Below, in pieces: positions 129 through 19,170 of a stretch of DNA of 20,016 nt. Each line of letters starts with the position of its first letter. The first letter of the stretch is position 1. Where the stretch lies: assembly GCF_006345805.1 (NCBI RefSeq), contig NW_021824026.1, positions 1 to 20,016 on the forward strand, in the 5' to 3' direction. A program made the position numbers and the translations under genes. Source of the DNA: Octopus sinensis. Its lineage: Eukaryota. A model generated the notes under the pieces. It was not told the DNA's origin. It saw nothing but the letters and a program-made list of their open reading frames with translations, and searched no databases.

Positions 129-203
129 AATGTACTGAAGAAGTCACGGACACTTGAATTATGCAAGTAATTCTTTTGTTAACCCGAAACCGAGGTATGC
201 ATT
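129..203 (+). ncRNA. Type I hammerhead ribozyme motif, intact core (Penelope-like/retrozyme type)
   Basis: Helix I AATGTA(129-134)/TGCATT(198-203), 6 bp with one G-U. Core CTGAAGA(135-141) and GAAA(186-189). Minimal helix III A-CC[GA]GG-T. GUA triplet with predicted cleavage after 197. Base of helix II is poorly paired; there is an inner GAATTA/TAATTC hairpin. Confidence 0.7.
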
Positions 204-340
204 TAAGTCTGTTTTTTATTTAATTTTTCATATGTCCTGCCCGCCAAATTTGGTTCTGGTGTTCGCTGAATTCTTCCTCTAGAGAATTTCCCTTCTAGCA
301 TTCTGGCCGGCTACTTAGCAGGCCAGCCCTGCCAATATAC

Positions 341-421
341 CACACACACACACATATACATATTTATATATATATATATATATATATATATAATATATAA
401 TATATATTATATATATATATA
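341..421. repeat. (CA)n/(TA)n microsatellite
   Basis: Direct reading. Confidence 0.95.
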
Positions 422-462
422 TTGAAGTTAATAAGGGTTTTATATCAGCAACAAATCGATCA

Positions 463-548
463 TTATCCCTTACAGCTGTTTCAGTTATACACACATAAAT
501 GAATTAAAAATGAAAATTACGTTTCTTAGCATCTCTTCAGAGGGAAAA
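463..548 (-). ncRNA. Type I hammerhead ribozyme motif (left arm)
   Basis: Minus strand reads TTTTCCCT-CTGAAGA-GATGC...ATAACT-GAAA-CAGCTG-TA-AGGGATAA. Helix I has 7/8 pairs, helix III is the palindrome ACAGCTGT, and the cleavage triplet is GUA. Confidence 0.7.
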
Positions 549-631
549 AATTATTCCCTTACATATTTTGTGTATTTATTTGTCTCATGTGATGTCTCCA
601 CAAGCACAGAAAATATCTAAGGTTATATTTT

Positions 632-714
632 TTCCCCTCTGAAGAGATTATGCTCAGAAATATGATTTCAATAGTTAATTTCTTTTTGTATATCTGAAAC
701 AGCTGTAAGGTAGA
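632..714 (+). ncRNA. Type I hammerhead ribozyme motif (right arm)
   Basis: CCT-CTGAAGA(639-645)-GATTATGC...GTATATC-T-GAAA(696-699)-CAGCTG-TA(706-707)-AGG. Palindromic helix III. Confidence 0.65.
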
Positions 715-1273
715 GTGATCAATTTGTTGCCCTTGTACATAAATATATGTATGTGATGATTGCTTCATCTTGACAGAGGATAGCCGTATCGATTTGTTTA
801 TCTAAATCCATTCACTGCGATACCTCATCTTGGATGCACTCCAGCAATTTTAAGATTTGGAATTTGAAAGATAAAAGACGTGATGCAGCAGTCGTCATAA
901 CGCCAGGTAGACAATGATAAGTTGTGTACCAAAAAAATTAGACAGAAAGCATAATCCTCATTGATATTTTTGTAGCGGTAATTCGAAACCAAACCGCTAG
1001 GTAACCGCTTATGCATCACGACCGAGCTGCAATAGTTTCCCGTGATCGGTCTATTAAGTAAGCAATCAGCGTCAAGCCACCGCATGATTCAAACTTGTAG
1101 AATATTTTTTGTGTCTTTAACGGGGCTTTTCGTGTCTAAACTCTATGCAAAGTGTTAAGGCTGGCTGACTCATTCACACGTCTCATCTATCATGCAGAAG
1201 TTTGAAGTAGTTACGCGTTGTATCTCTGTTATTACCTGAGAGCAGCCAACGAAATACAATCGCGACACTTTCC

Positions 1274-1374
1274 ATAATGTACACGTGTTTTGTGAGACTA
1301 GTTGACATTAGTTATGTAACCATAAATATCCAATCATGTAAGCAAATACCGCCGGTAACATTCATCACCATTAT
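1274..1374 (-). ncRNA. Degenerate hammerhead relic
   Basis: Minus strand reads ATAATG-GTGATGA...CAC-AAAA-CACGTG-TA-CATTAT. Perfect 6-bp helix I in exact register and palindrome ACACGTGT, but two core substitutions (C3>G, G12>A). Confidence 0.45.
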
Positions 1375-1649
1375 CGGCAAATATACAACAGGAATAAAAA
1401 CGACGGCTTTTATATACGCAAGTTTGCAAATAACAACTTTGGGATTCATGAAGAAGAGAAAAGAAGGAAATGAGAAGATAAAAGAAAAGAGTCATGTAGG
1501 TGGTAAAAAAAAAGGGAAAGTAGAGAAGACCCGCCGGGCAGCGACACACAGAAAGCGTGTAGTATCAGTAATGAGAATAAACAACTAGTTATAAATATTG
1601 AGCAAAACTTGAGTGTGTTTTATAACTTGATACAAAAATAAACATTAAT

Positions 1650-1809
1650 GTCTATCTATCTATTTGTCTGTCTGTCTGTCTATCTATCTATCTATCTATC
1701 TATCTATCTATCTATCTATCTATCTATCTATCTATCTATCTATCTATCTATCTATCTATCTATCTATCTGTCTATCTGTCTATCTATCTGTCTGTCTATC
1801 TATCTATCT
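1650..1809. repeat. (TCTA)n/(TCTG)n microsatellite
   Basis: Direct reading; abuts the 5' end of the LINE fragment. Confidence 0.95.
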
Positions 1810-16834: not shown

Positions 16835-17060
16835 TCTTTTATTCTTATACTTGTTTCAGTCCTTTGACTGCGGCCATGCTGGAGCACCGCCTTTAATCGA
16901 AGAAATCAACCCCAGTCTTATTCTTTGTAAGCCAAGCACTTATTCTATCGATAACATTTGCCGAACCGCTAAGTTACGGGGACGTGAACACACCAACATC
17001 GGTTGTCAAGCGATGGTGTGTGTGTGTGTGTGTGGGGGGACAAACGCAGACACAAACACA
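16835..17060 (-). mobile_element. SINE family A, 3' half
   Basis: Closely matches 15960-16150. Confidence 0.9.
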
Positions 17061-17261
17061 CACACACATACACACTTATATACATACACACACACACACA
17101 CGCATATAATATCAGCCGATACTACGATGATGGTCTTATGAAAGACTGAGGGTTCAAATGTCCGTCCATGTGTTATTGTATCGTCTTCTAAGTTATACGT
17201 ACTTGTCCATGTGTAATTCTACATACCTTATATATATATATATACACATATATATATGTAC

Positions 17262-17520
17262 TTGGCTCACGATCGTAAGGTCGTGAGTTCATTTCCAAGT
17301 GACGCGTTGTATCCTTGAGCAAGGTACTTTACTTCACGTTACTCCTCTCCATTCAACTGGCATAGGTGAGTACTACCTCTGTTTCAAATGGCCAGCCTTA
17401 TCACATTCTGTGAATCTCCCTGAGAACTATGTGAAATGGTACGCCTCTCTGTAGAGTGCTCAGCCACTGCACGTTAATTTTACGAGCAAGGTGTTCCGCT
17501 GATCGTAACCGACGGAGGCT
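17262..17520 (+). mobile_element. tRNA-derived SINE family C with MetaSINE-like core
   Basis: CTCACGATCGTAAGGTCGTGAGTTCA head remnant, TCCTTGAGCAAG..ACTTTACTTCACGTT core and a distinct tail ending GTAACCGACGGAG. Confidence 0.75.
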
Positions 17521-17529
17521 CATGTTACA

Positions 17530-17632
17530 TATACATATAATATATATATATATATATATATATATCTATATATCTATATATATAATATAATATATATTAT
17601 ATATATATATATATATATATAATACCTATATA
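17530..17632. repeat. (TA)n microsatellite
   Basis: Direct reading. Confidence 0.93.
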
Positions 17633-17634
17633 TC

Positions 17635-17790
17635 GTTCAAATTTACAGAAAATTTATAAATTTACGAAGACAGGTGTTATTAGTTTTTTACGCTCAGGGA
17701 GAATGGAAATGTCTCGTACGTTTCGAGCCTACGCTCTTCGACAGAAAGATTGAAAAGGAGTGAGAATGAAAAAAAATAATAAAAAGAAAA
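17635..17790 (-). mobile_element. Short hammerhead-bearing repeat, copy 2
   Basis: Homologous to 8011-8170; its 3' end abuts (TA)n. The 5' limit is uncertain. Confidence 0.7.
17712..17749 (-). ncRNA. Minimal hammerhead-like motif with variant core
   Basis: Minus strand reads TCTTT-CTGTCGA-A-GAGC-GTAG-GCTC-GAAA-CG-TA-CGAGA. Confidence 0.6.
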
Positions 17791-17919
17791 CGTAGTGAGA
17801 AAAAATATGTGTCGGGATTAATAGTTCAACATGATGAAATAGCCAGAAGAGGCTGAATCAAAGGGTGATAATAACGGCGACCCAGATGAACACACACACA
17901 CACACACACACATATATAA

Positions 17920-18556
17920 GGCGCAGGCGTGGCTGTGTGGTAAGTAGCTTGCTTACCAACCACATGTTTCCGGGTTCAGTCCTACTGCGTGGAACCTTGG
18001 GAAAGCGTCTACTAATATATATTTCTTTACTACCCACAAGGGGCTAAACACAGAGGAGACAAACAAGGACAGACAAAGGGATTAAGTCGATTACATCGAC
18101 CCCAGTGTGTAACTGGTACTTAATTTATCGACCCCGGAAGGATGAAAGGCAAAGTCGACCTTGGCGGAATTTGAACTCGGAACGTAACGGCAGACGAAAT
18201 ACGGCAACGCATTTCGCCCGGCGTGCTAACGTTTCTGCCAGCTCGCCGCCTTCTACTAATATAACCACCGGACGACCAAAGCCTTATGAGTGGATCTGGT
18301 AGATGGAAGCTGAAAGAAGCCCGTCGTATATATATGTGTGTGTGTGTGTGTTTGTGTGTCTGTGTTTGTCCCCTCACCATAGCTTGACAACTGATGCTGG
18401 TGTGTTTACATCTCCGTAACGTAACGGTGTGGTAAAATAGACTGATAGAATAAGTACTAGGCTTACAAAGAATAAGTTCTGGGGTTGATTTGGTCGCCCA
18501 AAGGCGGTGCTTCAGCATGGCCGCAGTCAAATGACTGAAACAAAAGAATAAAAGAA
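17920..18556 (+). mobile_element. SINE family A interrupted by a family B insertion
   Basis: Head at 17920-18019; the element resumes at 18252 and runs to the tail at ~18556. Confidence 0.93.
18020..18251 (-). mobile_element. SINE family B, full length, with 12-bp TSD
   Basis: Reverse complement of 13344-13573. TSD TCTACTAATATA at 18008-18019 and 18252-18263. Confidence 0.95.
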
Positions 18557-18574
18557 AAAATATATATATATATT

Positions 18575-19170
18575 ATATTAGGGAATATTATTCCAAACTT
18601 ACTGGGAAAATTCAATTTAGTAGTACTAAATCAAATTTCACAATAATACATGTATATAAATTAGAGAAGAATGACCATGTAGCAATTCAACAATGATATA
18701 CTTAAATTATTCCTTATAGAAAAAAATTAAAGATACGATAAAATATTTACTTAGAACTAAATAAAGTACGAAATAATAAATAAACAGTATATAATTAGTA
18801 AATAGAATACACGTGTTTCGTGGCTATATTAACAAACTGATAAAAATATAATAAATTCAATTTAAATATAGTCACTTATCAGGTCGAAGATAAAAACAAT
18901 AAAATAAGTAAATAAATGTACGTATATTATCTTATAAGAAAATATAAATATATATAAAATATGTAATTTTACAATAAAAACCGAACAAATTTCAACAATA
19001 TATCTTTGTTTTTGCTTTGGGTTCACCCTATCTTCGTTAATTCTGTAAATTCGGGTTATGGCCACCATTGGATTTCCACATGAACATTGGCTGTCCATAC
19101 ACGATTTTGTTGTTAATACTTACGTGCAACAGACTGCTTATACTCCACAAAATATTTAAACAATTTTTAA
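18575..19170 (-). mobile_element. Penelope-like element 3' end relic (GIY-YIG C-terminus, hammerhead, AT-rich tail)
   Basis: Minus-strand peptides NILWSI, VARKY*QQNRV and KNKDILLKFVRFLL* resemble the PLE endonuclease tail (I.WSI...A..Y.....C...LNKRSEI..KC). An HHR motif follows, and the element ends at a short TA run. Confidence 0.55.
18802..18888 (-). ncRNA. Hammerhead relic
   Basis: Minus strand reads TTCGAC-CTGATAA-GTGACTATATT...AATATAGCCAC-GAAA-CACGTG-TA. Helix II has 10/11 pairs and helix III is the palindrome ACACGTGT. G8>A in the core; helix I is decayed. Confidence 0.6.

Follow-up and report, generated by a model that had tools for sequence, protein, structure and literature searches.

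Hammerhead motifs of six repeat families in a 20-kb contig of Octopus sinensis, including a high-copy Penelope-like lineage with U at core position 6

Introduction

Penelope-like elements (PLEs) carry hammerhead ribozyme motifs, of which thousands per genome have already been published (PMC4209133). In the available parts of that work by Cervera and De la Pena (2014), these motifs have a type I layout with an extra base after A9 and a palindromic helix III, open helix II with G10.1-C11.1, occur as thousands of solo copies per genome and as inverted close pairs, and include a covariant U3-A8 core, found in the PLEs of S. mansoni. Here we analyze the complete 20,016-bp contig NW_021824026.1 of Octopus sinensis (the window; parent assembly GCF_006345805.1, 2.72 Gb), in which these features recur among the motifs of six repeat families, G10.1-C11.1 in some of them and the U3-A8 core in the one designated family D. 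In contrast with the published motifs, the core is separated from GAAA by 44-70 nt in families A, B, C and G, which exceeds the spacing of the published examples, and family F has U rather than A at core position 6 (U6 rather than A6). A6 is present in all 56 representatives of their Fig. S3, because the descriptor used to find them required it, and the species list in the available parts includes no cephalopod.

A changed position 6 within an otherwise intact core is shared with the A6C hammerhead of phage Bcep176, which, as described in the accessible portions of two reports (PMC3088659; PMC7151607), cleaves at <0.1/min and prefers Mn2+. Whereas A6C is known from one phage sequence, A6U is fixed in an animal lineage of 16,000 copies. 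The endonuclease-bearing (EN+) PLEs of Neptune/Nematis type combine, in the available text of Craig et al. (2021; PMC8557442), a reverse transcriptase (RT) plus a GIY-YIG endonuclease (EN) that is C-terminal and has a CCHH motif with a CX2-5CXXC linker, pseudo-long terminal repeats (pLTRs), partial tandems and (TA)n targets, all of which recur in families D and F; the role of the hammerhead in endonuclease-bearing PLEs is stated there to be unclear. Metazoan non-LTR retrozymes, with which family A is compared below, are non-coding tandem units with one type I hammerhead per unit, a GC content below 45% and strong self-pairing as a circle.

Hammerhead motifs of the window and their density

The initial annotation of the window, made from its letters alone, described about nine type I hammerhead motifs of several families, forming a dense and largely non-coding population of the kind found in PLE pLTRs and retrozymes. 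The sequences are as described at all nine sites, and eight lie in repeat families with hammerhead anatomy, which genome searches with each site sort into six: A, B, C, D, F and G (family sizes below are first-look candidates from these searches). The ninth site, 7017-7095, is the only single-copy one and was rejected: it has no other genomic copy and no valid core, the arm read as helix I pairs into the core itself, and what stands there is an inverted repeat of 10 bp in which GAAACGUU occurs by chance. The sites at 463 and 632 share one palindromic insertion, so that the eight real motifs sit in seven insertions rather than nine.

At the family level, the order CUGANGA (or the U3-A8 form UUGANAA), GAAA and UH is present in A, B, C and D; helix I closes and helix III is palindromic across the families, which is not the case at 7017. 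Helix II opens with G10.1-C11.1 in C, D and F, with A.C in A and with G.U in B. The pLTRs that flank an open reading frame (ORF) for RT and GIY-YIG hold the motif in families D and F, including intact elements. The window is best explained as an accumulation of 3' ends, truncated and for the most part damaged, from six families that, to judge from their sequences, would be ribozyme-bearing; two of these are Neptune-type PLEs, and the lineage with the U6 core is the most abundant.

Density was assessed with a loose descriptor built in the style of the initial annotation (core at most one mismatch from CUGANGA or UUGANAA, GAAA, palindromic helix III, GUH, and a helix I no shorter than 3 bp). It finds six sites in the window (129+, 463-, 632+, 3224+, 8096- and 17712-) against a mean of 0.33 and a maximum of 2 in 60 block-wise dinucleotide shuffles, and with exact cores only, four against 0.03; the density in shuffled sequence is not similar. 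The window copies are mostly damaged relative to their families: those at 18802 and 1274 escape the loose descriptor although their relatives bear the motif, and when an unbroken base of helix II is additionally required, only one of the nine, 8096, whose position 6 is G, passes. Of the 131 matches that a Rfam scan of the window gave at E<=10, almost all were microsatellite noise and none was to a hammerhead family.

The enrichment extends to the genome, but the window overstates it. In 75 evenly spaced 10-kb stretches from contigs C1-C13 (749,800 bases; three shuffles), the loose descriptor gives 48 matches against 15.3 in shuffled sequence, and exact cores 15 against 1.0. The net yield of about 0.9 per 20 kb makes the window a 5-6-fold hot spot, and extrapolation gives about 1x10^5 near-core and 5x10^4 exact-core motifs for the genome.

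Family F and its U6 core

The motif at 8096 (helix II GAGC-GUAG-GCUC, helix III ACGU, helix I CUUU/AAAG) and the one at 17712, with a damaged helix I, belong to family F, which has 1,956 first-look candidates. The core of the second copy, CUGUCGA, had been taken as a plain core match; its U6 is instead the state of the family. Unlike the standard hammerhead core, family F does not have A at position 6. A genome-wide search with the exact pattern core-A-GAGC-N4-GCUC-GAAA-CG-UH found 16,046 matches with U6 and 272 with A6, while the reversed pattern, used as a control, found none.

In longer copies of family F, the sequence continues upstream to a second RT-EN ORF of Neptune type (15,412 candidates), and the motifs of families D and F lie 0.1-1 kb behind RT/GIY-YIG ORFs. 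Among 14 family F loci with long ORFs, the motif is present downstream in 11, always as CUGUUGA. Three loci (L365-L367) are full-length, with the motif in both pLTRs (U6 in five of the six, C6 in one). In a motif-blind test, where 30 loci were chosen by their endonuclease, the motif was found downstream in 29, with U6 in 28 and C6 in one. The linker that joins RT to EN is CSRxRCRTC and the CCHH motif can be read from the sequence; together, linker and CCHH motif fit an assignment of families D and F to the Neptune/Nematis type as published. The ORF appears to be single, with copy-specific indels; a frameshifted ORF1 was considered for this family and dropped, as the positions at which the frame is broken differ among L365, L367 and L368.

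The positions at which the motif varies are few. A subfamily ladder drawn from a flank tree (for the branches listed) and an endonuclease-DNA tree has N7 going through C, G, A, C and U, so that all four letters occur subfamily by subfamily, and H17 shifts between A and U, with no G there in any of the 29 motif-blind copies. Column majorities were compared between flank-defined subfamilies (31, 15 and 17 copies), with loci selected for A6 excluded. Between S1, the oldest subfamily, to which the 8096 copy belongs, and S5, the youngest, two of 36 motif columns differ (N7 and H17), as against 58 of 182 columns in the flanks, which have indels as well; in the other comparisons the flanks differ, again in addition to indels, at 23 columns out of 175 and 30 out of 170. 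Flanks have thus diverged by 13-32% between subfamilies, a range possibly inflated by low-complexity pyrimidine tracts, while 34 of the 36 motif columns are unchanged, and by the flank yardstick the chance of no change in 30 motif columns is at most 0.015. The copies compared show U6 to be the fixed state of family F at the sequence level, with all of the motif except N7 and H17 conserved across subfamilies, and the youngest full-length elements have U6 as well. The U6 pattern had no match in metagenome contigs; its pLTR is covered by public-run contigs presumed to be RNA, which cannot reveal ends or strand.

Of 30 A6 loci fetched, seven belong to a sister family that has the same helix II, a different loop and the outer helix I pair swapped from C-G to G-C; most of the others are flanked as in family F and look like point mutants. 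In a sister family, seven copies (L025, L042, L053, L075, L136, L185 and L192) have the core CCGACGA (U4C) and a 3-nt loop II, and CUGACGA copies exist with the same flanks, CCGACGA being a second fixed core variant. When the first 100 matches of each kind are compared, G7 stands in 24 of those with A6 (CUGAGGA) and in 9 of those with U6, and the CUGAGGA copies (L306, L313, L314, L316, L319, L320 and L325) are possibly a small branch that reverted from U6 to A6.

Family D, a U3-A8 Neptune-type PLE

The motif at 3224 lies in the 3' pLTR of another element, which is very abundant (2,130 first-look candidates) and young. Its U3-A8 core, a kind already known, is UUGAAAA in all 58 distinct copies recovered by a search motif that excluded the core. 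Cleavage of the window copy is predicted after C3256; the base after the cut is missing, as in several copies of the family. An RT and GIY-YIG ORF lies upstream of the motif, with frames open for up to 920 aa; a search with the C-terminal part of this ORF gave 25,282 first-look candidates, 118 of which were scored at 92-96% amino-acid identity. The Pfam domains of RT and GIY-YIG (PF00078, PF01541) are borne by 653 homologues, whereas our own Pfam scan of two C-terminal fragments returned neither, only sub-threshold SIR2 and His-Me. The CX4CXXC linker reads CGRxNCATC, a CCHH motif is present in the sequence, and the full-length element L166 has the hammerhead in both pLTRs. Families D and F, the two best studied here, are coding, autonomous PLEs and so depart from the description of the population as largely non-coding.

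In contrast to canonical EN+ PLEs, described as single-ORF in the abstract of PMC8557442, family D has an upstream ORF1 and a UUUUUUA -1 slippery site; the legend of Fig. 1 in the same paper mentions an ORF1 with frameshift. On the minus strand of L166 (C2:146928000-146935000), ORF1 starts with ATG, runs for 429 codons to the slippery site and has a heptad-like N-terminus; the RT-EN ORF2 is in the -1 frame, has no Met before the DKG motif and is joined to ORF1 at a conserved TTTTTTA. In all 11 copies covering TTTTTTA, the 0 frame stops after 20-22 codons and the -1 frame stays open for 105-802. Family D is therefore an exception to the single-ORF layout expected of EN+ PLEs, and the arrangement of its ORFs likely reflects a programmed -1 frameshift, although one for which no strong pseudoknot was shown.

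Families A, B, C and G

Family A (931 first-look candidates; the best 40 at 98-99%) is a 546-bp unit whose copies are 98-100% alike and are found singly, in head-to-tail arrays that reach about five units, and as truncated partners in inverted orientation. Like metazoan non-LTR retrozymes, it has one type I hammerhead in a non-coding tandem unit, a low GC content (39%) and strong self-pairing, the cut-to-cut monomer folded as a circle giving z=-4.2 (30 shuffles). Its core is canonical, and its long helix II opens with A.C, a mismatch that recalls the U.U at the helix II base of the axolotl HHR_Amex2 in the description available. In the window copy, helix III is ACC-GA-GGU, helix I has 7 bp and the predicted cut follows A197, but the 3' strand of helix II is missing, with CCC where the family has GACC. 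In a deeper relative (contigs of two public runs, at the place of L073:1591-1596), GGUC replaces GACC before GAAA, so that the base of helix II differs among branches of the family. At 546 bp the unit exceeds the 150-450 bp of invertebrate retrozymes given in the available text of PMC7229834 and falls within the 51-972 bp given in that of Li et al. (2026; 10.64898/2026.07.22.740005), and unlike known retrozymes its arrays contain inverted truncated copies in the style of PLEs. Family A, known here from DNA units, fits a non-LTR retrozyme that would form a 546-nt circle; the unit is covered by public-run contigs presumed to be RNA, which cannot reveal ends, strand or circles.

Family B (328 first-look candidates) is represented by the palindromic insertion, 82% identical over 312 nt to L039/L044. 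Of the 29 loci, among which there are two overlapping pairs, 9 contain inverted pairs, and CUGANGA, GAAA and helix III are all intact in 19 of 32 motifs; the helix II region of arm 1 is long, AU-rich and opens with G.U. In family C (1,524 first-look candidates), the window motif is dead, with G8A and a broken helix I, but the family consensus is canonical (CUGAUGA, a helix II of about 11 bp, ACACGUGU, GUA, helix I UAGAC/GUCUA), CUGAUGA being present in 20 of 25 motifs. The family G relic, which carries C3G and G12A, has three genomic matches including itself; both relatives, at 74%, keep GAAA and are each one change, a different one, away from CUGAUGA. From these three differently decayed copies a canonical core can be inferred for the family.

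An association with PLE ORFs, found for D and F, was also sought in the sequence near copies of A, B, C and G, and none could be tied to them, which tells against our reading of the window; these four families would be non-autonomous riders. ORF fragments near copies of A, B and C (L047, L091/L386, L066 and L081) were set aside as coincidence, as other repeats or microsatellites intervene and the fragments are not common to other copies. For family G, a PLE fragment lies 0.7 kb upstream at L113, and its inverted partner L387 has a different downstream motif.

Further hammerhead families with canonical cores were seen in the 750-kb sample (L174, L186, L199, L200, L207 and L230), with helix II regions of 40-77 nt and 8-nt palindromic helices III. 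Long helix II inserts seem to be common in this genome.

Other features of the window

The window is full of microsatellites and of SINE-like repeats (resembling short interspersed elements), present as many copies of two or three kinds that we take to resemble octopus SINEs. It also holds a broken RT fragment, presumably L1/Tx1-like, and a helicase fragment that is likely a Helitron remnant (Table 1).

Table 1. Positions of hammerhead-bearing insertions, motifs and other features in the 20,016-bp window
Feature	Position	Strand	Remarks
Family A, part of 546-bp non-coding tandem unit, young	1..340	+	contig begins within unit
Family A hammerhead	128..204	+	core CUGAAGA 135-141, GAAA 186-189
Family B, palindromic head-to-head inverted insertion, two hammerheads	419..730	.	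genome search
Family B hammerhead, arm 1	466..545	-	CUGAAGA, helix III ACAGCUGU, GUA, 5-bp helix I
Family B hammerhead, arm 2	636..710	+	as arm 1 but helix I reduced to 3 bp
Family G relic	1268..1381	-	helix I AUAAUG/CAUUAU, helix III ACACGUGU
Broken non-LTR retrotransposon RT fragment	1810-3130	+	RVT_1, E=1e-18
Family D, 3' pLTR of abundant young Neptune-type PLE	3144..3420	+	ends at (TA)n tract
Family D hammerhead	3224..3262	+	U3-A8 core UUGAAAA 3231-3237, 2-bp helix II, helix III ACCGGU
(TAT)n microsatellite, 790 bp	4855-5641
Rejected motif, single-copy inverted repeat	7017..7095	+	genome search matches itself only
Family F, old subfamily S1, 5'-truncated pLTR of second Neptune-type PLE	8012..8168	-	ends at (TA)n
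Family F minimal hammerhead	8096..8131	-	G6 here; family core CUGUNGA (U6)
Pif1 helicase 2B fragment	9843-10166	-	E=7e-11
SINE-like repeats	12400-12810, 13340-13760, 14090-14720, 15940-17100, 17915-18545	both	nested
Family F, second, more diverged copy	17628..17750 (5' border approximate)	-	motif 17713-17748
Family C, AT-rich repeat	18572..19006	-	motif 18803-18885

Does the U6 motif cleave?

Drawing on published work on PLEs and retrozymes, we propose that a tandem or pLTR-to-pLTR transcript would bring two motifs together, that their palindromic helices III (ACGU, ACCGGU, ACAGCUGU or ACACGUGU) would pair with one another, and that the RNA would then be cut after H17. The RT/endonuclease would copy this RNA into (TA)n tracts, in most cases with 5' truncation and frequently together with an additional inverted copy, and such insertions would leave the short solo motifs seen in the window. 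With A6C slow and mutants of the CUGA turn weak, U6 is predicted to weaken catalysis. We nevertheless lean, by a modest measure, toward a family F variant that would still self-cleave, slowly, as a dimer, its masters having kept a slow ribozyme instead of a fast one. More tentatively, and with a little less than half of our confidence, the U6 hammerhead may serve as the functional ribozyme in a retrotransposon lineage that is among the largest of the genome. With the same reserve we suggest that it could have persisted across four or more successive masters as a cutter that is slowed or gated by metal.

Several observations weigh against a cleaving U6 motif. In the available portions of the respective reports, a saturation study found every single mutant of the CUGA turn to be of low activity (PMC9901934), minimal hammerheads of PLEs are poor cleavers with A6 as well (PMC4209133), eight of nine Xenopus retrozyme dimers show no cleavage (10.64898/2026.07.22.740005), and an anole PLE, the one PLE with an in vitro system, inserts there without cleavage, no reads ending at the cut site (PMC11167929). 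For a young U6 copy, the predicted minimum-energy fold (-8.4 kcal/mol) is more stable than the hammerhead fold (-5.9 kcal/mol) and pairs U4-G5-U6-U7 with A14-A15.1-C-G, U6 lying opposite A15.1, an inactive hairpin that U6 favors. Loop II (GUAG) is likewise unchanged between the subfamilies, so that the constraint may be wider than catalysis, and the possible inflation of flank divergence belongs on the same side.

Several of these points are drawn together by the foremost alternative, which shares the PLE origin and to which we give roughly a third of our confidence: the U6 motif would no longer cleave and its shape or sequence would be kept by the masters as a signal for binding or folding that serves the RT/endonuclease, or as a promoter DNA element of the pLTR. 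That Naiads thrive without hammerheads, according to the accessible part of 10.1101/2021.04.23.441226, also speaks for it. Against it, the sole two positions to have changed, N7 and H17, are those that catalysis leaves free, and H17 stayed H.

Considerably less probable is that U6 arose as a neutral loss and was carried along in a single master copy, its conservation reflecting few generations or search bias. Master lineages are able to fix neutral changes and most family F copies were found with motif-containing queries, but the motif-blind loci agree in 29 of 30 cases, and the motif columns have not followed the divergence of the flanks. Chance matches in an AT-rich, microsatellite-rich genome are a very improbable source of the motifs as a whole, for although chance does account for 7017-7095 and the loose descriptor matches 15 times per 750 kb of shuffled sequence, the excess in the window over its shuffles and the repeat families, whose members keep or restore the core, refute it for the other eight sites.

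Significance

Dense PLE hammerheads, U3-A8 cores and retrozymes are known kinds (Cervera 2014, 2020), and with their presence here a new group of hosts is added to what is known of them. What is new is the lineage with U6 and, as a side observation, the likely -1 frameshift of family D. A natural A6U hammerhead was not found in the literature searched, although Perreault Fig. S7 and the heat-map data of Roberts might hold A6U, nor was a report of an octopus or cephalopod hammerhead, the Terminon paper of Arkhipova (2017) lying outside the coverage of that search; the available text of the O. vulgaris repeat paper makes no mention of a ribozyme or hammerhead.

If our reading is correct, the hammerhead of family F would be the first natural A6U form with a high copy number, one that no CUGANGA descriptor can see, and would offer a ready natural experiment on the purpose of PLE hammerheads. 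A lineage that kept all other constrained positions and made tens of thousands of copies separates two options. If U6 cleaves, the consensus of the hammerhead core and all descriptor-based censuses would need widening; if it does not, the fold would have been kept for something besides catalysis.

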